Assembly (NCBI GenBank): GCA_963702425.1
Contig: CAVPCQ010000032.1
Span: 128,001-192,000, forward strand
Reading direction: 5' to 3'
Source: an uncultured Acidobacteriota bacterium
GTDB lineage: Bacteria; Acidobacteriota; Polarisedimenticolia; J045
Length of the DNA stretch: 64,000 nt
Every line of letters begins with the position of its first letter. Position 1 is the stretch's first letter. The notes below the pieces were generated by a model. The model made no database searches, had not been told where the DNA came from, and saw nothing but the letters and a program-made list of their open reading frames with translations. Shown piece by piece: positions 53,166 to 63,007 of the stretch. Both the position numbers and the translations under genes were made by a program.

Positions 53166-55514
53166 TCAGCGCCTTCCCGGCGGCAGCAGCACGGACGCCG
53201 CCGCGTACAGCCCCACGCCGGCGAGCGCGACGTCATGGAACCCGGCGAGAATCGCCAGCGCGAGCGAGCAGACGCTGGCGAGCACGCTGGCGACGCCGTT
53301 GATCGCCCAGAACCAGGGCTTGCCGGCGTCGCCGAACCGGATCATCCCGACCGGGAACGCGAATCCCATGAGGTATCCGGGAAGCGCGAGCAGCAGCACG
53401 CTCGTCGCCACACGGGCCGGGAACCCCCAGCCCAGGCTGGCGCGGAACACGGGACCGAGGAGCAGCTCCGCGACGAGCACCGCCAGCGGCAGCAGGAACG
53501 CCCACCCGCGGCCGGCGAGGCGGGCCCGCGCGGCCGTCATGGCCCCGAGGCCGGCGCCCAGCAGCAGCGTTCCCAGGACCACCGCGGTCGCGTAGCTGGG
53601 ATGCCCGAGGTACAGGATGAAGCGCTGGATCCACGGCGCCTCGACGAACATGAACGCCAGTCCGATGGCCGCGAAGTAGGCGGTCCCGCGCCAGATGCCG
53701 GCGTGGCGCGGCAGCGCCCGCGCCAGCACGAGCGGCGCAGAGAAGGCGGCCAGCGCGAGCACGGCCATCCCCACGAGGAGCCGCCGGAGCGTGACCACCG
53801 ACTGGTCGTTGGCCGAGAGCGACGCCAGCGCGTCGCGGTTTACGTCTCCGAGCAGGCCGACGGTCTGGAAGAAGAAGGGCCGGTCGTCGGTCGGCGGCGT
53901 CAGATCGAACCCCTGCTCGCGCATCGACTCCCAGCCCGAGACGAGAACCTGCGCCAGCCGCGACTCGGCCGGCGTCTCGGCGCCCTGCGGCCAGTGCCGC
54001 ACCAGGCCGCGCGACGCGACGACCTCGTCGAGCTGCGACAGCCGTTCCGCGTCGAAGGGGCGACGGGAGACGAGCAGCGTGCCGACGCGCCCGGCCTGGA
54101 CCACCGCAAGGTGGCTCAGCGGATCGGCGACGCCTTCGCGCTCGAGCGCGAACCGGGCGAGCAGCGCGAGCCGCAGACCTTCGAGCTGACGCCGGCCCAT
54201 CATCCAGCGCGAGATCGAAACGACCCCGTCGTCCGAGAGCCGGTTCCAGTAGAGACGCAACGCCTCCTCGGTGTAGAGGTAGTTCTCGGAGAGCGCGAAG
54301 GCGCCGGCGGCCGTCGCCGCCCAGGTATCGATCAGCGAGATCTGGATCAGGTCGTACTTCTTGTCGGTGCGCGTCAGGAACGAGCGCCCCTCGGAGACGA
54401 CGGCGTTGACGTGCGGCAGGTGGTACACGTCCCCGGAGAACTCCCGGAATCGCCCCGAGACCAGGTCGACGATCTGCGGGTTGATCTCGATCGCATCGAT
54501 CTCCTGCGCGCCGGCCTCGCGGGCCGTCAGAATGTCACGACCGCCTCCCGCGCCGATGATGCAGACGGTTCGCGGCACCCGTAGCTGATAGCCCACGCTG
54601 GTCACATCGAAAAGCAGATGCTCCAGCGACTCCGGCCCGCCGCCGAGCCGCGTCACGGGCGTGCCCGCAGAGCCATCCTGTTCGATCCAGAGCTGCTCGA
54701 CCGCGTGGGGCGAAAAGCGCGTGCCGAGGCCCCAGTTGAAGGCCTCCTTCGGGTCCTTCTTCCAGAAGACCGTGTCGAAGACCGTGAGCCGGGCGGTGGC
54801 GGTCCACTTCTCGTAGAGCAGCGGACCGGTTTCCTCGTAGAGCTTGTTGTAGCGCAGCGTGTAGGGCGCCCCCCAGGCGATCGAGGCCGCGAGCGCCGCC
54901 GCGATGACCCCGGCCGCGCGACGTCGGGACGGGAACAGCACGGCCAGCGCCACGAGCGGCAGGAGCGCCGAGGCGGCGAGCAGGACCGGGGTCGCGACGA
55001 CGTTCATCAGCGGAATGACGAGCAGCGCCCCGCCCGTCGCCCCGAGCAGGTCGGCACCGTACATCCGCCCGATGGCGCGCCCGGTGACGCTCATCAGCAG
55101 CAGGCAAACGGCGGTCCCGAGAGCGAGCAGCGGCGGCAGCACGCTGACCAGCACCAGCAGCACGCGCCAACCGGCATCGGGCTGCGCTCCCAGCAGCGGC
55201 GACCGGTCCTCGCCCGCGGGCAGGAGCGCGCCCAGCTTGAAGATCGCGACGATCGAAAGCGGCACGAGAATGGCCGACACCTGGAGCGCGATGCGCAACG
55301 CGCGCGGGCGGGCGGGCCGCAGCGCGAACCAGATGCCGGGAGCGCCGAGCGCGAGCATGGCCAGCGACACCGAGAGAAAGGCGAAATGGTACCAGAGCAC
55401 GACGGAGAGGATCCGCGTGATGGCGATCTCGTAGATCAGGACGGTGCAGGAGACGAGCGCGATCGCGACCAGGAGAGACCGCTCGCCTCCGGAGACCTGT
55501 TCATCCGAGTGCAC
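53166..55514 (-). CDS. Polytopic membrane protein with a spermidine-synthase-like SAM-binding domain
   Basis: YEIAITRILSVVLWYHFAF, IIGAGGGRD, IEINP, EGRSFL, SENYLYT, WAING. Confidence 0.85.
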   Translation of the reverse strand: MHSDEQVSGGERSLLVAIALVSCTVLIYEIAITRILSVVLWYHFAFLSVSLAMLALGAPGIWFALRPARPRALRIALQVSAILVPLSIVAIFKLGALLPAGEDRSPLLGAQPDAGWRVLLVLVSVLPPLLALGTAVCLLLMSVTGRAIGRMYGADLLGATGGALLVIPLMNVVATPVLLAASALLPLVALAVLFPSRRRAAGVIAAALAASIAWGAPYTLRYNKLYEETGPLLYEKWTATARLTVFDTVFWKKDPKEAFNWGLGTRFSPHAVEQLWIEQDGSAGTPVTRLGGGPESLEHLLFDVTSVGYQLRVPRTVCIIGAGGGRDILTAREAGAQEIDAIEINPQIVDLVSGRFREFSGDVYHLPHVNAVVSEGRSFLTRTDKKYDLIQISLIDTWAATAAGAFALSENYLYTEEALRLYWNRLSDDGVVSISRWMMGRRQLEGLRLALLARFALEREGVADPLSHLAVVQAGRVGTLLVSRRPFDAERLSQLDEVVASRGLVRHWPQGAETPAESRLAQVLVSGWESMREQGFDLTPPTDDRPFFFQTVGLLGDVNRDALASLSANDQSVVTLRRLLVGMAVLALAAFSAPLVLARALPRHAGIWRGTAYFAAIGLAFMFVEAPWIQRFILYLGHPSYATAVVLGTLLLGAGLGAMTAARARLAGRGWAFLLPLAVLVAELLLGPVFRASLGWGFPARVATSVLLLALPGYLMGFAFPVGMIRFGDAGKPWFWAINGVASVLASVCSLALAILAGFHDVALAGVGLYAAASVLLPPGRR

Positions 55515-55598
55515 CGACGCATGGTGAAGGAACGATCTGCCGATGACAAGCGGCGGTTCACGACGGCGCGGCGGACGGGCCGGGACGGAGCCCGGCCC

Positions 55599-55757
55599 CT
55601 ACGGGTCTTCGGGACGATCGACCGGCGGCTTCGGCTCCCGCCCGGGGAGCTCACAGGACTGCGACATTCAGGTGGGGATCCCCATCCAGGGGAGGATCCA
55701 GCGCTGGAGCGCGAACCACGCGCCCAGGATCGCAAGAAAAAGCAGGATGTTGGTCAT
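55599..55757 (-). CDS. Candidate 52-aa membrane selenoprotein (29 aa if TGA is read as stop)
   Basis: Not in the ORF track. ATG overlaps the upstream stop (TGATG). Reads MTNILLFLAILGAWFALQRWILPWMGIPT-TGA(55668-55670)-MSQSCELPGREPKPPVDRPEDP-TAG. Confidence 0.65.
55634..55650 (-). promoter_or_regulatory. Candidate bacterial SECIS hairpin
   Basis: GCUCCC-CGGGC-GGGAGC; the loop starts 23 nt after UGA and has G at its second position. Confidence 0.45.
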
Positions 55758-56050
55758 CAGACCAGTTGCTCCACGTTGACGACGCTCGCTCTCAGGCACG
55801 GCTGGATCTCGCATTTCCCGGCGAAATCCTGCAGGTCTTTCAGGATCGCCGCAACCGCCGCTTCCGACACCCCGGGGACGACGATCACGATCGCCCCGAA
55901 GGAGACCGTTCGGGGCAGGCTCGCGCGCTCGAGGAACTTGTGGCCCACCGCGCCCGGGATCTTCAGGTAGCCTTCCGCCCCGTGGCGGTCGAGCGCGCCG
56001 ACCACCTCGTGCTCGAGGTCCTCGCTGCAGTAGATGACGAGCTGCTTCAT
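55757..56050 (-). CDS. PII-like (PG0541-type) transporter-associated protein
   Basis: 97 aa, MKQLVIYC...GAEGYLKIPGAVGHK...VVNVEQLV; ATGA overlap with the RND gene; CEIQPC motif. Confidence 0.7.
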   Translation of the reverse strand: MKQLVIYCSEDLEHEVVGALDRHGAEGYLKIPGAVGHKFLERASLPRTVSFGAIVIVVPGVSEAAVAAILKDLQDFAGKCEIQPCLRASVVNVEQLV

Positions 56051-59000
56051 TCCGCGTCTCCCGATGCCGGCGTCTCGTGCTTGGCGCGCTCGACCATGTA
56101 GTAGAGCACGGGCACGACGACCAGCGTCAAGACGGTCGAGGCCAGCGAGCCGAACATCAGGGCGATTGCCAGCCCCTGGAAGATCGGGTCGAACAGGATC
56201 ACCACCGCGCCCATGACCACCGCGCCCGCGGTCAGCACGATCGGCCGCGTCCGCACCGCCCCGGCCTCGACCAGCGCCTCGCCCAGCGTCCGCCCCTCGG
56301 CCAGCGCCAGCTCGACGAAATCGATCAAGAGGATCCCGTTGCGGACCATGATCCCGGCCAGCGCGATGAAGCCGATCATCGAAGTCGCGGTGAAGAAGGC
56401 TCCCAGCGCCCAGTGCCCCGGGACCACGCCGATCAGGCCGAGCGGAATCGCGACCATCATCACCAGTGGCACCGTGAACGATCGGAACCAGCCGATGATC
56501 AGCAGGTAGATCAGCACCAGCACGGCGGCGAAGGCGAAGCCGAGGTCGCGGAAGACCTCGTAGGTGATGTGCCACTCGCCGTCCCACTTCATCGCCGGCT
56601 TCTCTTCGGACCCCGGCTCGTCGCGGTAGTACTGCTCGACCACGCCGCCCCCGGGGACTTGCAGCTTGTCGATCTCCTTGGCCATCTTGAGGATCGCGTA
56701 GACTGGGCTCTCCTCGCGGCCGGAGACATCGGCGGTGACGTAGACGACGGGCTTCAGGTTCTTGCGGAACAGGCTGGCGTCCTCCGTCGTGCGGCGGACC
56801 GTCACCAGCTCCGACATCGGGACCATCGCCCCGCTCATCGCCGCGAGCTTGACCGCCGCGAGGGCCGCGACCGACGAACGCTCGGCCCGCGGCAGCTCGA
56901 CGCGGATCGGCACCGGCTCGGCCTCCGCGTCGCGGTGCAGCAGCCCCGCGTCCTCGCCGGCGATCAGCGCCCGCAGCGAGCGGGCAACCATCGCCGCCGG
57001 AACGCCATGGAGGGCAGCCTTCTCGCGGTCGACCTCGAAGACTTCCTTCGGCTGCGGCGCCTCGACCCACCAGTCGACGTCGACCACGGAGGGGGTCGAT
57101 TCGAAGATCCCCTTGATCCGCTCGGCCGTCGCGCGGCGGGCCTTCTCGTCCGGGCCGTAGACCTCCGCGACCAGCGTCGCCAGGACCGGCGGCCCCGGCG
57201 GGACCTCGGCGATCTTCACCGCCGCGCCGTTCTTCCTGGCGATTTCCTCCACCGCCGGGCGGATCCGCTTGGCGATGTCGTGGCTCTGGTCCTTGCGGTC
57301 GTGCTTGGGGGCCAGATTCACTTGAAGATCGGCGACATTGGCGCCGCGCCGCAGGTCGTAGTGCCGAACCAGGCCGTTGAAGTTGACCGGCGCCGACGTC
57401 CCGGCGTACAGCTCGACATCGGTCACCTCCGGCACGCTGCCCAGGTAGATCCCGATCTCGCGCGCCACGCGCGCCGTGTCCTCGAGCGTCGTCCCCTCCG
57501 GCATGTCGACCACGATCTGCAGCTCGCTCTTGTTGTCGAACGGCAGCATCTTCACCGCGACCATCTTGAGCGGGAACATCGCCACGGCGCCCGCCAACAG
57601 CAGCGCGACGCCCCCCAGGAAGCCCCAGCGGAGCGCGGGCTTCTCCATCATCGGCACGAGGATCCGGCGATAGAGGCCGTAGATCCTGGTCCGCTTGACG
57701 TCGTACTCCTCGTCGTGGGCGTGTCCGCCGCGCAGCAGCCGGTAGGCCAGCCAGGGGGCGATCGTCAGCGCGACGACCAGCGAGAAGAGCATCGCCAGCG
57801 ACGCGCCGATCGGCATCGGCGCCATGTAGGGACCCATCAGGCCGCGCACGAAGGCCATCGGCAGCAGGGCCGCGATGACGGTGAAGGTCGCCAGGATCGT
57901 CGGGTTGCCGACCTCGGAGACCGCGGTCACCGCGGCCTGCAGCGCCGGCAGCTTCTTCATCGAGAAGTGCCGGGCGACGTTCTCGACGACGATGATCGAG
58001 TCGTCGACGACGAGCCCGGTGACGAAGATCAGCGCGAAGAGGGTCACGCGGTTCAGGGTGTAGCCGAAGACGTAGTAGATGAAGAGCGTCAGGGCGAAGG
58101 TCACCGGCAGCGAGATGAAGACCACCAGCGAGCCGCGCCACCCGAGCGACAGGGCGATGAAGATCGTCACGATCACGATCGTGAGGAGCAGGTGCAGCTC
58201 CAGCTCGTCGACCTTTTCGCGCGCGGTCTCGCCGTAGTTCCGCGTCACCTCGACTTCGACGCCGCCCGGGACCAGCGTCCCCTTCAGTGCGTTGACCTTG
58301 TCGAGCGCGGCGGCGGTCACGCGGTAGGCGTCCGCCCCCTTGCGCTTGGCGAGCGACAGGGTGACCGCGTCGTAGAGGCCGGCCGGCGCCTCGATGCCGC
58401 GCGTCCGCGCCGCCGGCCCGGGCGAGAAGGCGACGTAGTCGGCCGGCTCCTCCGGGCCGTCGAGCACGGTGGCGACGTCCCGCAGGTAGATCGGCTTTCC
58501 CTCGTGTGCACCGACGACCAGCCCCTCGACGTCCTCGCGGCTCCTCAGGAACCCGCCGGTCTCGACCTTGACCTCGCGGTTCCCCTGCTCGATGCTGCCG
58601 GCCGGGGCGCTCGCGTTCTGGAACTGCAGCGCCTGGACGATCGTCCCCGGGTCGGCGTGCATCGCCGCCATCCGGCCGCCGTCGAGCTGCACCCGCACCG
58701 CGCGCCGCTGGCCGCCGATGATCTTGATCTCCGAGACGTCGTCGAGCCGCGACAGTTCCCTGCCCATCTCGGCCGCCAGCCGCCGCAGCGCGAAGCCGTC
58801 CTGGTCCTTGCGCGCGCTCCAGAGCGTCAGCCCCAGCACCGGCACGTCGTCGATCGCCCGCGTCCTGATCAGCGGCGGAGTCGCGCCGGGCGGCATCCGG
58901 TCCAGCCCCGAGACGAGCTTGTCGTAGATCTTGACCAGGCTGCGCTCCTGGTCCTCGCCCACCTTGAAGCGGACCGTGACCATCGCCACGCTGGGCATCG

Positions 59001-59271
59001 ACCCGGAGTAGACGTACTCGACCCCGGGAATCTCCGCCATCCGCTTTTCCAGCGGGATCGTGACGCGGTTCTCGACGGCCTGGGGCGAGGCGCCCGGCAG
59101 GCCGACGAAGATGTCGACCATCGGGACGACGATCTGCGGCTCCTCCTCGCGCGGCGTGAGCAGCACCGCGAACCCGCCGAGCAGGAGCGACGCCACGATC
59201 AAGAGCGGCGTCAGCTTGGAGTCGATGAAGAAGTGGGCGACCTTGCCGGCCGGCCCGAGGCTGGGGGTCAT
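56047..59271 (-). CDS. RND efflux transporter permease (AcrB/CusA superfamily)
   Basis: PREEEPQIVVP, GLVVDDSIIVVEN, RTRPIVLT; 1074 aa. Confidence 0.96.
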   Translation of the reverse strand: MTPSLGPAGKVAHFFIDSKLTPLLIVASLLLGGFAVLLTPREEEPQIVVPMVDIFVGLPGASPQAVENRVTIPLEKRMAEIPGVEYVYSGSMPSVAMVTVRFKVGEDQERSLVKIYDKLVSGLDRMPPGATPPLIRTRAIDDVPVLGLTLWSARKDQDGFALRRLAAEMGRELSRLDDVSEIKIIGGQRRAVRVQLDGGRMAAMHADPGTIVQALQFQNASAPAGSIEQGNREVKVETGGFLRSREDVEGLVVGAHEGKPIYLRDVATVLDGPEEPADYVAFSPGPAARTRGIEAPAGLYDAVTLSLAKRKGADAYRVTAAALDKVNALKGTLVPGGVEVEVTRNYGETAREKVDELELHLLLTIVIVTIFIALSLGWRGSLVVFISLPVTFALTLFIYYVFGYTLNRVTLFALIFVTGLVVDDSIIVVENVARHFSMKKLPALQAAVTAVSEVGNPTILATFTVIAALLPMAFVRGLMGPYMAPMPIGASLAMLFSLVVALTIAPWLAYRLLRGGHAHDEEYDVKRTRIYGLYRRILVPMMEKPALRWGFLGGVALLLAGAVAMFPLKMVAVKMLPFDNKSELQIVVDMPEGTTLEDTARVAREIGIYLGSVPEVTDVELYAGTSAPVNFNGLVRHYDLRRGANVADLQVNLAPKHDRKDQSHDIAKRIRPAVEEIARKNGAAVKIAEVPPGPPVLATLVAEVYGPDEKARRATAERIKGIFESTPSVVDVDWWVEAPQPKEVFEVDREKAALHGVPAAMVARSLRALIAGEDAGLLHRDAEAEPVPIRVELPRAERSSVAALAAVKLAAMSGAMVPMSELVTVRRTTEDASLFRKNLKPVVYVTADVSGREESPVYAILKMAKEIDKLQVPGGGVVEQYYRDEPGSEEKPAMKWDGEWHITYEVFRDLGFAFAAVLVLIYLLIIGWFRSFTVPLVMMVAIPLGLIGVVPGHWALGAFFTATSMIGFIALAGIMVRNGILLIDFVELALAEGRTLGEALVEAGAVRTRPIVLTAGAVVMGAVVILFDPIFQGLAIALMFGSLASTVLTLVVVPVLYYMVERAKHETPASGDAE

Positions 59272-60413
59272 CGTGTCACCTCAGCGGGCCTTGCGCCGGA
59301 ACTGGAGGGGCCGGGGTCGGACGCGCCGGAGATCGGCGCGCCGTCGGCGATCCCCGCGGGCGGCGCGCTGACGTAGCGCTCGCCGGCGGAGAGGCCCGAG
59401 AGGACCTCGACCCGGTCGCCGAGCAGCGCCCCCGGCCGCACCCAGCGCAGCCGCGCCTTGCCCGCCTCGTCCACGATCCAGACGCCCTGGAGCTGTCCGC
59501 GCTCGACCAGCGCCGCCGCCGGCACGGTCAGCGTTTCCCGCGTCCCCTTCGGGAACCGGATGCGCACGTACATCCCCGGCTTGATCGCGCCGCCGGGGTT
59601 GTCGAGCAGCAGCTTCACCGCGAAGGTCCGGCTCATCGAATCGCCGGCCGGGACGATCCGCTCGACCGTCGCCGGGACCGGCGCGCCCAGCACGTCGATC
59701 GCGACCGTCGCCGGCGCGCCTTCCGCGAGGCCGACGATCTGCGCCTCCGGCACCTGCGCCACGACCCGGACCTTCGACAGGTCGTCCACCGTGAAGAGCG
59801 GCATCCCGGGCGACGCCATGTCGCCGGCTTCGATCCGCTTCGCGGTGACGACGCCGGAGACCGGGGTCGAGACGATGGCGTAGCCGAGCATCACCTGGGC
59901 CGCCGCGAGATTCGCCTGCGCCTGCTGCACGCCGGCCCTGGCCATGTTGTAGCCGGCGGTCGCATCCTCGAGGTTCTTGGCGGTGGCGGAGCCGCGTTCG
60001 ACCAGCGCGGTCATGCGCTTGTACGTCGCCTCGGCGTTCGTCTGCTGCGCCTCGGCCATCGCGACGCCGGCCTTCGCCTGCTCGACCGCCGCCGCCAGGT
60101 CGCGGCTCTCGAGCCGCGCCAGCGCCTGCCCGGCGCGGACGGCGTCCCCCTCGCGGACCATCACGCGCTCGACGCGCCCCATGATCTTCGTGCCGGGGGA
60201 GACGCGCTCGATCGGCTCGACCGCGCCGGACACCTCGACGACATCAGCCGAGGAGGCCAGCTCGGCCACGGCGACCGGCGCCGACACGGCGGCCGGCTCG
60301 GCGGGAGGGGCGACCTCGTGCCGGCCGCCGCAGCCGGCGGAGAGCAGGACCGCGGCCAGCGCGGCGACAACGAGGACGACGGAAGCGGGTCGGGAACTCG
60401 GGCGGCGGATCAT
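59268..60413 (-). CDS. RND periplasmic adaptor (membrane fusion protein), lipoprotein
   Basis: Lipobox LSAGC; VREGDAV; TPVSGVV; IKPGMYV; EVLSGL. Alternative GTG start at 60431. Confidence 0.93.
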   Translation of the reverse strand: MIRRPSSRPASVVLVVAALAAVLLSAGCGGRHEVAPPAEPAAVSAPVAVAELASSADVVEVSGAVEPIERVSPGTKIMGRVERVMVREGDAVRAGQALARLESRDLAAAVEQAKAGVAMAEAQQTNAEATYKRMTALVERGSATAKNLEDATAGYNMARAGVQQAQANLAAAQVMLGYAIVSTPVSGVVTAKRIEAGDMASPGMPLFTVDDLSKVRVVAQVPEAQIVGLAEGAPATVAIDVLGAPVPATVERIVPAGDSMSRTFAVKLLLDNPGGAIKPGMYVRIRFPKGTRETLTVPAAALVERGQLQGVWIVDEAGKARLRWVRPGALLGDRVEVLSGLSAGERYVSAPPAGIADGAPISGASDPGPSSSGARPAEVTR

Positions 60414-60427
60414 CGGCGGTTCTCCCG

Positions 60428-61759
60428 TCACAGGCGGCCGATGGCCAGCTTCAGGCGGGCCTCGGCGAGCAGGACATCGCGGCGTGCGGAGACTTCGCGG
60501 GTGCGGGAGGAGGTCAGCGCGGTCTCGGCGGCCAGCAGCTCGACCAGCGTCGTCAGCCCCTCCTTGTAGCGGTCCTCGACGATCACGAGGCTGGCCTCCG
60601 CGGACTCGATCGCCTTGGCCGCGTGTCCGAGGCTCTCGCGCGAGGCCTTCAGATCGTAGAACGCCTGCCGCACCTCGAGACCGGCCATCTGGCGCAGGTG
60701 GTTCGCGTATTCGGTCGCCTGGCGCTGCTGCTCCTCCGCGCGGCGCACGCGGGAGCGCGTGCCGAAGCCATCGAACGCGTTCCAGGTGACGGTGCCCATC
60801 ACGGTCCAGTTGGTGCCGTCGGCGCCGATGAAGTCCTCCGCGTTCGCCTCGTAGGCCCCACCGACGCCGATTTCGGGCAGGTAGCCGGCGCGCGCCACCT
60901 TGATCATCTTCTCTGCGGCACCGGTCCGCGCGACTGCGGCCTTGAGATCGGGGCGCGCGTCGATCGCCTCCTTCGTCAGCGCGTCGAGATCGCTCTCGGT
61001 GAAGACCGGAACGTCGACGCTCGCCGGCAGCGCGTGGGGCGTGTCGAGCGGCAGCCCCATGGCGAGGTTCAGCCCGGCGCGCGCCACCGCCGCCTGGCTG
61101 TCGGCGCGGGTCAGCATGTCCCTCAGCTCCAGCTCGCGGACCTCCGCCTGGAGCAGGTCGGAGCGGACGACCATCCCGGTCTCGACCATGTCGCGCACGA
61201 GCTTGACGTGGGCTGACGCCGTCTTCAGCCCCTCGCCGGCGACGCCGCGGGTGCTCTCGGCCAGCACGGCGCCGCTGTAGGCCTCGATCACCCGCTGCGT
61301 GACCTGCTGGCGCGCCGTGTCGCGGTCGGCCGCCGCGGCCGCCGCCCCCAGCTCGGCCGCCGCGACCCCGCCGGCGATCTTCCCGCCGCTCCAGATCGGC
61401 TGCATCACGGCCAGCTTGGTGTTCCAGTTGTTGGTGGCGGGCGGCTCGTTGAGGAAGTTCGGATCAAAGTTGGCCGGGCCGAAGCGCTCCTGCGACAGGA
61501 GGTCGCTGAAGACCAGGACCGGGTTGGTGCTGCGCGACGCGAACTCCGAGAGCTGAACCCGGGGGAGGCGCCAGGAGCGGGCCTCGTCGACCTGCGCCTC
61601 GGCCGCACCAACCCCGGCGTCGGCCGCGCGCAGCAGCGGGTTCTGCTCGAGCGCGGTCGCGACGGCCTCGTCGAGCGTCAGCGGGGCGGCCTCGGCCGCA
61701 GCGGCCGGCCGGGCCAAGCCCAGCGCCAGGATTACCAGGCCAAGTACGATGCGCTTCAT
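60428..61759 (-). CDS. TolC family outer-membrane efflux protein
   Basis: MKRIVLG signal peptide; LTLDEAVATALEQNP; RPDLKAA; RYKEGL. GAGG RBS upstream. Confidence 0.93.
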   Translation of the reverse strand: MKRIVLGLVILALGLARPAAAAEAAPLTLDEAVATALEQNPLLRAADAGVGAAEAQVDEARSWRLPRVQLSEFASRSTNPVLVFSDLLSQERFGPANFDPNFLNEPPATNNWNTKLAVMQPIWSGGKIAGGVAAAELGAAAAAADRDTARQQVTQRVIEAYSGAVLAESTRGVAGEGLKTASAHVKLVRDMVETGMVVRSDLLQAEVRELELRDMLTRADSQAAVARAGLNLAMGLPLDTPHALPASVDVPVFTESDLDALTKEAIDARPDLKAAVARTGAAEKMIKVARAGYLPEIGVGGAYEANAEDFIGADGTNWTVMGTVTWNAFDGFGTRSRVRRAEEQQRQATEYANHLRQMAGLEVRQAFYDLKASRESLGHAAKAIESAEASLVIVEDRYKEGLTTLVELLAAETALTSSRTREVSARRDVLLAEARLKLAIGRL

Positions 61760-61836
61760 GGCGATGTCACCCTCGCGGGGCCCGGCGGGACCGCCGGGCC
61801 GGCGGATAGCGCAGAGATGCCGCGGCGGGGGCCGGG

Positions 61837-62914
61837 TTACAGCCAGCGGCGGGTCCGGAACCAGAGGTACATCCCGAGCGCCGCGGCCGCCATCAGGCCG
61901 AGCGCTCCGTACCAGCCCGAGACCTGCTCCTTCCCGGGGAACAGGACGTTCATCCCGCCGACGCTGGCGATGAAGGTCATCGGCATGAAGATCGTGCTGA
62001 TCAGGGTCAGGGCCTTCATCACCTCGTTCAGCTTGAGGCTGACGGCGTTCAGGTAGAGGTCGTGCACGGTGCCGACGACGTCCCGCAGGTTCTCCAGCAT
62101 GTCGATCAGCTGGATCGTGTGATCGTAGATGTCGCGGAAGTAGATTCGGGATTCGGGGCGCAGAAGCGCCGCTCTCGCCCCGCTCGAGCCAGGAGATGAC
62201 CTCGCGCATCGGCCAGACGGTCCGGCGCATCTCGATCAGCGAGCGCTTCATCGCCAGCACGCTCTCGATCGTCTCACGACTTGGATCGGAGAGGACCCGG
62301 TCCTCGAGGTCCTCGAGCTTGACGCCCAACTGCTCCGTGATGACGAAGTAGTTGTCGACGATCGTATCGAGCAGCCGGTACATGAGGTAATCGACGCTTC
62401 TCTGGCGCGCCTGGGCCTGACCCTGCGCGATGCGCGACGCGATCCCGCCGAACAACGTCGGCTGCTGCTCTTCGAAGGTGATCAGCCAGTCCTTCCCGAG
62501 CACGAAGCTGACCTGCTCGGCCACCACCTCGCCCGACTCCGCGTCGAGTGACAGGTTGCGGACCACGACGAAGAGATAGTCGCCGTAGTCGTCGCACTTG
62601 GGGCGCTGGCCGACGTTGACGATATCTTCGACGACCAGCGGGTGCAGGCCGAACATCTCCGCCACCTTCTGGATCTGCGCGACATCGTGCACCCCGTCGA
62701 TGCAGATCCAGCTCGGCCGCCCCGAGTCGCGGAACCGGGGAAGATCGGACGGCTTGACGTCCGCGTGGAGCGATGCCGTCGCGGTGTCGTAGTCGAGGAC
62801 GCTGATCCGGATCGGGCGCGCGACCTCGGCCCCGGTGTAGACGGGGGTGCCGGGGGGGAGTCCGGCCTTCTGCGCGCGGTGGCCCCGGGCAGCTTTGCGA
62901 CGGCGTCGGCTCAC
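61837..62914 (-). CDS. corA: Magnesium/cobalt transporter CorA; one frameshift near 62170
   Basis: KAGLPPGT, HPLVVEDI, QRPK, DTIVDNYF, LNEVMKALT, GMN. An extra G near 62170 splits the frame. Confidence 0.92.
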
Positions 62915-63007
62915 GGCCGGATTATCGCCGTGTCCAGTTTGACGGTCCACGGGGGCTCCCGGAGAATGGGGCGGTCCCAGTCCACACGCTCACCGGAGGA
63001 GAGACCG

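Follow-up and report, generated by a model that had tools for sequence, protein, structure and literature searches.

The 64,000-nucleotide stretch of DNA from an uncultured Acidobacteriota bacterium analysed here (the window) carries, on the minus strand at 55757..55599, an open reading frame (ORF) of 52 residues with an internal UGA, and this ORF is very probably a real gene in which the UGA is decoded as selenocysteine (Sec, U). The best explanation overall is likely that it encodes a Sec-decoded membrane microprotein with a Sec/Cys pair. As judged from its homologs, the peptide belongs to a large and widespread family of single-pass Sec/Cys microproteins, whose hallmark is a [Sec or Cys]-x4-Cys motif directly past the helix. 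The peptide gene was found in roughly a quarter of the sampled genomes of the phylum (105/401) and in several other phyla. The following features, including a putative bacterial selenocysteine insertion sequence (bSECIS), were distinguished in the window:

55757..55599, minus strand: selenoprotein candidate coding sequence, 52 residues; ATG at 55757-55755, Sec codon 30, Cys 35, TAG at 55601-55599
55686..55754, minus strand: predicted single transmembrane helix, residues 2-24 (TNILLFLAILGAWFALQRWILPW); AlphaFold2 model, 53-row alignment
55668..55670, minus strand: in-frame UGA, read here as selenocysteine (residue 30) from the TGA/Cys conservation in homologs
55653..55655, minus strand: Cys35 codon (TGT), partner in U-x4-C; invariant in the 17-sequence and 53-row alignments
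55632..55653, minus strand: bSECIS-like hairpin; fold in the window, position and covariation in the family

The ORF is translated as MTNILLFLAILGAWFALQRWILPWMGIPT, followed by the internal TGA (readable as U) and by MSQSCELPGREPKPPVDRPEDP up to the final stop. The A of its ATG (55757-55755) is also the last base of the TGA stop codon of an upstream PII-like gene (55759-55757; context cTGATGa), i.e., the two genes overlap by 1 nt. In the AlphaFold2 model, the helix formed by residues 2-24 has a predicted local distance difference test score (pLDDT) of ~90 (mean 88-90 over residues 1-20), and the motif and tail are modeled as coil (pLDDT 60-73). The helix ends at residue 24 and U30 follows, which places the start of the motif five residues past the membrane helix. 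The Arg/Lys residues after the helix and an acidic residue 3 in many members (charge distribution only) suggest, by the positive-inside rule, that the N-terminus is out and that the motif and tail lie at the cytoplasmic face. In the core of the hairpin, 55650-55645 pairs with 55639-55634 (GCUCCC/GGGAGC) around the loop CGGGC (55644-55640), which begins 23 nt past the UGA and has G in its second position; two extra outer pairs follow past a one-base bulge. An earlier note on this DNA had described an ORF missing from the ORF track, with an ATG overlapping the PII-like stop, a helix, an in-frame TGA, a Cys and a TAG, together with the hairpin GCUCCC-CGGGC-GGGAGC, its loop 23 nt past the UGA and G second; all of these elements are present in the sequence, the hairpin at 55650-55634. 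In contigs of four public DNA runs covering 55500-56100, the TGA and the frame are unchanged in environmental variants, which carry a synonymous TGT>TGC substitution at Cys35 (place 55653) and further third-position changes.

Relatives were sought by a six-frame search with the read-through peptide in 61 related genomes (E<=1e-4; the tallies for the 61 include one genome, G034, whose only match proved spurious). All 18 relatives' matches contain exactly one in-frame TGA, with the alignment continuing past it. The codon in the U column is TGA in 18/18 and TAA or TAG in none of the 18, and Cys35 is encoded by TGC (16) or TGT (2). The relatives share the pattern M.D.LL.LAI...WFAL.RWILP..GVPT-U-MS..C.LPGRE, followed by a variable charged tail, and the core pattern across all 18, including variants, is W..L.RW[IV]LP..G[IV]PT-U-MS..C. 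Residues W14, L22, P23, G26, T29, U30, C35 and R40 are invariant in the 17 aligned relatives, one locus (L037 of genome G028) having been omitted from the protein alignments for want of a clear start codon. In most relatives a start codon is located 28-30 codons before U, often with GGAG upstream. Variability at codon positions 1, 2 and 3 is 0.92, 0.74 and 1.23 bits past the UGA and 0.74, 0.43 and 1.03 bits before it; position 3 thus exceeds position 1, and position 1 exceeds position 2, on both sides, so the stretch past the UGA looks coding. The earlier note had proposed that homologs would have TGA or Cys at the Sec column and that conservation would continue past the TGA. The first expectation was borne out by TGA in all 18 relatives and by Cys in 39/40 fetched representatives of a wider search (see below), and the second by invariant C35 and R40 and the coding-like codon variability.

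A weak match lacking the TGA was found in one relative, G018 (E 0.005, outside the E<=1e-4 set). An even sample of the phylum gave matches in the 105/401 genomes mentioned above (E<=1e-5), with TGA in 103 of the 106 matches. Four loci, L041 and L042 among weaker matches in relatives and L078 and L121 from a pattern scan, proved spurious after translation and were dropped. As a separate observation, genome G028 contains two small selenium-related genes arranged tail to tail: an Rdx-family gene (SelW-like, Pfam 2.6e-31; L063:6712-7071) is convergent to the peptide gene, which has no obvious start codon there, and the longest ORF of the former overlaps it.

The 17-sequence alignment of relatives was used as the profile in an exhaustive search, which returned 1265 representatives at E<=0.001, 98 of them at E<=1e-10. 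Lengths of 39-118 residues predominate among the best 150 matches, and in many of these the alignment extends well beyond the Sec column. Among 40 fetched from these 150, Cys occupies the Sec column in 39 (the exception, P0026, has Trp), and a second Cys five residues on is present in 40/40, with the consensus WIVLNRWVLP.FGIPT-C-MSGAC. Given Cys at the Sec column in homologs, the family shows the classical Sec/Cys pair. One representative, P0055, runs on into a thioredoxin domain (Pfam 3.2e-26). A word-based protein search with the window peptide retrieved only five clusters of 29-residue stubs, annotated as 'hypothetical protein' or unnamed, and the ESM Atlas gave one unnamed 'hypothetical protein' cluster at 0.88, which we regard as a lead only.

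The distribution of the two forms was further sampled with a degenerate DNA pattern, G[IV]PT-(TGA/TGC/TGT)-M-[S/T/C/R]-G-x-C, in contigs taken as one genome per species. It matched at least 119 stretches, 80 of which were fetched (63 TGA, 9 TGC, 8 TGT); removal of two spurious and two duplicate loci left 60 new TGA-form and 16 Cys-form loci. By record title, the loci derive from Acidobacteriota (many Bryobacteraceae), Planctomycetota, KSB1, Zixiibacteriota, Armatimonadota, Latescibacterota, Akkermansiaceae, Myxococcota and others. Nearly all are metagenome bins; one cultured strain, Aquisphaera insulae JC669 (L145), carries the TGA form. A protein homolog search with the read-through peptide of this strain found no protein of 34-111 residues.

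The rule for bSECIS elements, as given in PMC13188914, is a small apical loop 16-37 nt past the UGA with G in the first two loop positions, and the loop and spacing of the hairpin in both the window and the family fit the rule in that form. All 18 relatives have a hairpin of 6-10 bp whose loop starts 22-24 nt past the UGA, with differing stem sequences and the loops CGGGC, GGUC, GGU, GGA, GGG and GGC, as well as CGGGA, AGGUC and CGGCGC once each. In a strict count (perfect stem, loop of 3-6 nt starting 21-25 nt past the codon), a stem of at least 6 bp was found in 52/77 TGA-form loci, 3/16 Cys-form loci and 5.3% of background positions of the same loci (n = 5447), the values for at least 5 bp being 64/77, 3/16 and 13.2%, respectively. 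Taken together, the TGA forms comprise 53 different hairpin sequences.

Base pairing was also evaluated for all 78 TGA-form sequences in a single fixed register of 7 pairs, even where the hairpin of a sequence lies in another register. In this register 66.8% of cells pair vs. 48.7 +/- 1.6 in shuffles (0/500 reach this value), the covariation score is 0.459 vs. 0.214 in shuffles (0/500), slid registers give 37.7-49.6% pairing, and two-sided changes occur in all 7 pairs (122 cells). The same test on the 16 Cys forms gave 50.0% pairing vs. 41.8 +/- 3.9 (11/500), a weak residual signal that is consistent with a few recent Sec-to-Cys switches (e.g., L148). Two Cys-form loci (L148:4501-4563 and L147:112-174) keep a 6-bp hairpin at the SECIS position, which may be the trace of a recent switch. 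RNAalifold recovered only a 3-pair fragment from the ungapped 18-sequence alignment because hairpins with 3-nt and 5-nt loops lie there in two registers, and the per-sequence and fixed-register counts were used instead. The location of the hairpin inside the coding sequence explains the conserved but lineage-specific residues past Cys35 (ELPGRE, DVESRR, DAGSRHE and others).

The genome from which the window derives (91% complete) encodes the complete selenocysteine machinery: (i) tRNA-Sec (70.8 bits; identified by ARAGORN as tRNA-SeC, anticodon TCA), (ii) selB (313 bits), (iii) selA (507 bits) and (iv) selD (340 bits), all exceeding the curated cut-offs. All four of the genes whose presence the earlier note had left to be checked (selA, selB, selC and selD) were thus found. 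The selD gene (G000:C16:54490-55428) itself contains one in-frame TGA, and SelD is therefore a selenoprotein in this genome. Across lineages, the selA model TIGR00474, which at the threshold used matches 1/14 control genomes, was found in 32/34 and 4/5 further TGA-form genomes (36/39, including A. insulae JC669) and in 4/16 Cys-form genomes. In the class of the window, selA is present in 58/61 genomes, so the test is not discriminating within it. In one genome of the same genus as that of the window, selA is split into two adjacent pieces (G004:C4:1016061-1017270; 253.6 and 204 bits), by a frameshift or an assembly error, and the TGA form of the peptide gene is kept.

Several points weigh against this interpretation. 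The 45-nt stretch of the window, folded alone, has z = -0.39, and its fold is equalled or bettered by 68 of 200 shuffles; the earlier caveat that a single 6-bp hairpin is common at high GC content therefore holds. In the comparison of homologs, the TGA, the Cys and the place of the hairpin are conserved in dozens of genomes, which exceeds chance. Within the strict position limits of the hairpin count, 13/77 TGA-form loci have no 5-bp stem (several fold one a few bases off). The shuffle statistics treat related genomes as if they were independent and thereby exaggerate the signal; the contrast between TGA and Cys forms and the slid controls are unaffected by kinship. The degenerate pattern fixes the motif residues, which are consequently not evidence in that set; what the set can show is limited to its TGA:Cys ratio, flanks and hairpins. 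No selA match was obtained in 3/39 TGA-form genomes (metagenome bins of unspecified completeness), and no public RNA run containing the stretch is listed. As regards function, the gene neighbourhoods are heterogeneous, and none of the neighbours counted on the same strand in the loci of other lineages is universal. Set against these points, the TGA/Cys homologs, the conservation past the TGA and the Sec genes all support the predicted U-x4-C selenoprotein with one helix and a SECIS element that the earlier note had put forward.

A mechanism compatible with these data can be outlined. Ribosomes ending the PII-like gene would restart at the overlapping ATG and translate the membrane helix (residues 2-24). 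At UGA30, SelB carrying Sec-tRNA(Sec) and bound to the in-gene hairpin would insert selenocysteine instead of terminating, which would yield a product consisting of the helix, GIPT-U-MSQS-C and a short charged tail. The Sec/Cys pair may then cycle between the selenol/thiol and selenenylsulfide states, or hold a thiophilic ligand, and may be serviced by partners of the thioredoxin or coenzyme A (CoA)-disulfide-reductase type. That thiol/selenol redox chemistry, in the form of a selenenylsulfide/thiol couple at the membrane surface, is the main activity is our tentative preference, with somewhat less than even confidence. In the lineage of the window, the gene appears to have been recruited as the last coupled cistron of an efflux operon (OEP-MFP-RND-PII-like), and the pump or the Cys-rich PII-like protein may receive from the peptide a redox or metal signal that the latter senses itself or passes on. 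The operon and the element that follows it comprise:

55757..56050, minus strand: gene upstream of the peptide ORF, for a PII-like protein of 97 aa; matched weakly by NCBIfam PG0541_fam (E 0.0011) and by Pfam P-II (E 0.041)
56047..59271, minus strand: RND permease, 1074 aa; Pfam ACR_tran 4.1e-163
59268..60431, minus strand: periplasmic adaptor (membrane fusion protein, MFP), 387 aa; NCBIfam RND_mfp 2.2e-69, Pfam HlyD_D23
60428..62950, minus strand: longest ORF, 840 aa, first operon cistron(s); Pfam OEP 1e-62, CorA 2.2e-32
55577..55598, minus strand: 8-bp G+C palindrome GGGCCGGG-CTCCGT-CCCGGCCC, directly past the TAG stop

The stop codon of the RND permease gene overlaps the PII-like start (ATGA), and since all genes of the order OEP(+CorA-like piece)-MFP-RND-PII-like overlap, the peptide gene forms the end of an operon with translational coupling. 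The permease scores 471 bits with multidrug-type models vs. 299 bits with CusA/CzcA-type models, both below the cut-offs, and the adaptor also matches the CzcB/NccB family model at 178 bits, below its cut-off. The OEP match of the 840-aa ORF is best over residues 655-838 and its CorA-like part spans residues 80-259; this frame may represent a gene fusion or two genes sharing a frame, or the ORF may have been called too long. In the PII-like protein, for which a protein homolog search recorded only close relatives that are unnamed or annotated as 'hypothetical protein', Cys8 and C80-x4-C85 are conserved in 8/9 aligned homologs. The C-x4-C spacing of this protein equals the U-x4-C spacing of the peptide. 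A joint redox or metal site formed by its Cys8/C80-x4-C85 and the peptide can be taken as a lead from these sequences.

Neither a sigma-70-like promoter nor a T-tract terminator was found within 55300-56200. The genome contains 8 copies of the palindrome GGGCCGGG/CCCGGCCC, of which 5 have the same loop (control pattern, 0), and the summed contig depth over 55563-55604 is very high in four metagenome runs. It is probably the 3' end of the operon or an element resembling repetitive extragenic palindromes, or else a terminator lacking a T-tract. The next gene downstream (53166-55514, minus strand) is a 782-residue ORF with a central spermidine-synthase-like domain (Pfam 1.8e-6), the rest of which is unmatched.

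Within the class of the window, the order RND -> PII-like -> peptide recurs in 10/18 loci and persists where RND identity has fallen to 54-56%. Another locus is oriented divergently to an OEP-MFP-RND operon, and 7/18 have unrelated neighbours, e.g., Usp/DUF302, photolyase/HD or a histidine kinase. In other lineages, an RND gene is present in 7/76 loci (flanks of up to 4.5 kb, many shortened by contig ends), 2 of them upstream on the same strand. The other neighbours include: (i) ArsR/SmtB regulator genes, which immediately precede the peptide gene on its strand in 4 loci and are divergent from it in 2, (ii) CoA-disulfide-reductase-like genes directly downstream in 4 loci (TIGR03385, 345-435 bits, below cut-off), (iii) thioredoxin or DsbD-like-thioredoxin fusion genes in 3 loci, (iv) a gene for a MerA-like oxidoreductase containing flavin adenine dinucleotide (L107), and (v) genes for an FmdB-type zinc ribbon (4 loci), DUF302 (4 loci) and Usp (3-4 loci). 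A histidine kinase neighbour occurs in five closely related genomes, which are not independent evidence. A 'rhodanese' neighbour cluster was dropped, being mixed, at scattered positions and without a fusion. The redox- and metal-type neighbours and the thioredoxin fusion point to a role in thiol/selenol redox chemistry or in the binding of a thiophilic ligand, not to a pump-specific subunit.

It is possible, although we consider it unlikely, that the main task of the Sec-x4-Cys motif at the membrane is the binding or hand-over of thiophilic metals or metalloids (Hg, Cu(I), As, Te or Se species). The motif would then be likened, with the same reserve, to the Cys pairs of small mercury transport proteins and not to a catalytic redox couple. 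The ArsR/SmtB genes, the one MerA-like neighbour, the efflux operon in the window with its CzcB/NccB-matching adaptor (178 bits, below cut-off), and the adjacent PII-like protein with a C-x4-C of its own would fit such a metal site. However, no metal-specific neighbour is universal, the thioredoxin, DsbD-like and CoA-disulfide-reductase-like context fits redox chemistry equally well or better, and the sub-threshold scores of the permease favour the multidrug type over the CusA/CzcA type.

Less probable still is that the peptide is a dedicated RND accessory analogous to AcrZ, its helix docking on the RND transmembrane domain and its Sec/Cys motif tuning activity or substrates. AcrZ is a small accessory protein (~50 residues) of the AcrAB-TolC pump with one transmembrane helix and no Sec/Cys motif. 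The peptide is similar in size, has a single helix and adjoins an RND pump in the window, where it closes an operon whose genes all overlap, and the conserved gene order in 10/18 related loci, with the one additional divergent arrangement, agrees with this proposal. On the other hand, the 7/18 relatives with unrelated neighbours and the scarcity of RND genes outside the class (7/76 loci) speak against it. No sequence relation to AcrZ was found, nor any Pfam family match even at E up to 10, in a database that presumably includes an AcrZ model. Of the 'redox or metal-sensing pump accessory' of the earlier note, the redox or metal role is thus plausible and the specificity for the pump is not supported by the counts from other lineages; an AcrZ-like role is possible in this lineage but does not appear to be a property of the family.

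It is very improbable that the UGA is an ordinary stop, in which case the product would be a 29-residue peptide consisting of the helix only and the hairpin would be a terminator or a regulatory RNA. Public gene calls do end there, as in the five 'hypothetical protein' clusters of 29 residues; in addition, G+C-rich genomes use TGA more often than any other stop codon, and the hairpin of the window alone is not significant. However, the profile has 1265 matches, of which those fetched read through this column with Cys (39/40) and keep the next Cys, and the TGA form tracks selA (36/39 vs. 4/16 genomes). Moreover, no TAA or TAG occurs at this position in the 18 relatives, the five triplets past the TGA show codon-like variation, Cys is encoded at its position throughout, and the Cys forms are mostly without the hairpin. 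Although G+C-rich DNA yields long open frames on both strands, a chance ORF that is no gene has a negligible probability, given that the peptide is conserved in several phyla, that some of its residues never vary and that the start codon keeps a fixed spacing.

Returning to the Sec-decoded microprotein, two further proposals can be made. The first, which is bold and rather unlikely in its full form, is that this is the first bacterial single-pass membrane selenoprotein family, acting as a selenol/thiol relay that here forms, with the Cys-rich PII-like protein, a redox or metal switch controlling the RND pump. As a further possibility, the gene may itself act as a sensor of selenium: under selenium shortage, translation would stop at UGA30 and release the 29-residue helix-only peptide, perhaps an inhibitory one.

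Annotation routinely takes UGA for a stop and so gets selenoprotein genes wrong; the peptide gene is either skipped by gene callers or recorded as the 29-residue stub. A membrane microprotein with U-x4-C at the end of a helix differs in kind from the usual thioredoxin-fold selenoproteins. If confirmed, it would be a common new entry in bacterial selenoproteomes, with revised estimates of selenium use in soil and sediment bacteria, and a small, tractable model for the role of selenium at the membrane surface. The neighbouring genes (ArsR-type, thioredoxin and CoA-disulfide-reductase-like, and RND and PII-like here) suggest redox or metalloid stress as conditions worth examining. The existence of a cultured carrier of the TGA form with selA, A. 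insulae JC669 (L145), makes laboratory work practical.

The family is uncatalogued in Pfam, NCBIfam and the 2026 inventory of prokaryotic selenoproteins, as far as Table 1 of the latter (119 families with model accessions; PMC13188914) goes. The window peptide and 12 Cys forms matched no model of Pfam-A or NCBIfam (release 20.0) at E<=1, and 53 family members matched no recurrent Pfam or NCBIfam family at E<=10. Table 1 of the inventory lists no single-helix U-x4-C family among its 119 entries (PMC13188914), and none of the nine new selenoprotein families named in PMC12013277 fits the peptide. The motif strings were not found in the literature searched; supplements of metagenomic selenoproteome studies, which lay outside that search, could list the family under a placeholder name.

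Among known systems, the bacterial Sec/Cys redox selenoproteins (thioredoxin, glutaredoxin and peroxiredoxin-like proteins), as they appear in Table 1 of PMC13188914, share with the peptide (i) an in-frame UGA with Cys-form homologs, (ii) an in-gene hairpin conforming to the bSECIS rule, (iii) a Sec paired with a nearby Cys, and (iv) the tie to the Sec machinery (here selA in 36/39 TGA-form genomes). Unlike the proteins in these table entries, the peptide has no thioredoxin fold or globular domain and carries U-x4-C, not UxxC or CxxU; it is a single-pass membrane microprotein of ~50-65 residues. A short Sec...Cys motif likewise characterizes the Tso system (TsoA with LULAxC, the rhodanese/DsbD fusion TsoB, and TsoR; PMC13188914, Table 1), and some neighbours of the family match, below threshold, the models of TsoR (ArsR-type) and TsoB (DsbD-like and thioredoxin). 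By its table row, however, TsoA has U-x3-C and not U-x4-C, and at E up to 10 the family has no match to the TsoA model (NF045695) or to any other model in NCBIfam.

The MerT-type 'putative mercuric transport protein' selenoprotein (PF02411, C/SxxU; row in Table 1 of PMC13188914) is, like the peptide, a small membrane protein with a Cys/Sec pair, and its link to metal handling and to ArsR-/MerR-type regulation resembles the context of the family. MerT differs from the single-helix peptide in having several helices and other motifs, and no match of the family to PF02411 was obtained at E up to 10. SELENOK and SELENOS are small single-pass membrane selenoproteins with Sec in a disordered non-membrane segment near another redox-active residue; they are eukaryotic proteins of the endoplasmic reticulum, with Sec near the C-terminus and a SECIS element in the 3' untranslated region. 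As a likeness only, with no homology claimed, the peptide is similar to these two proteins in its size, its single membrane pass and the placement of its Sec.

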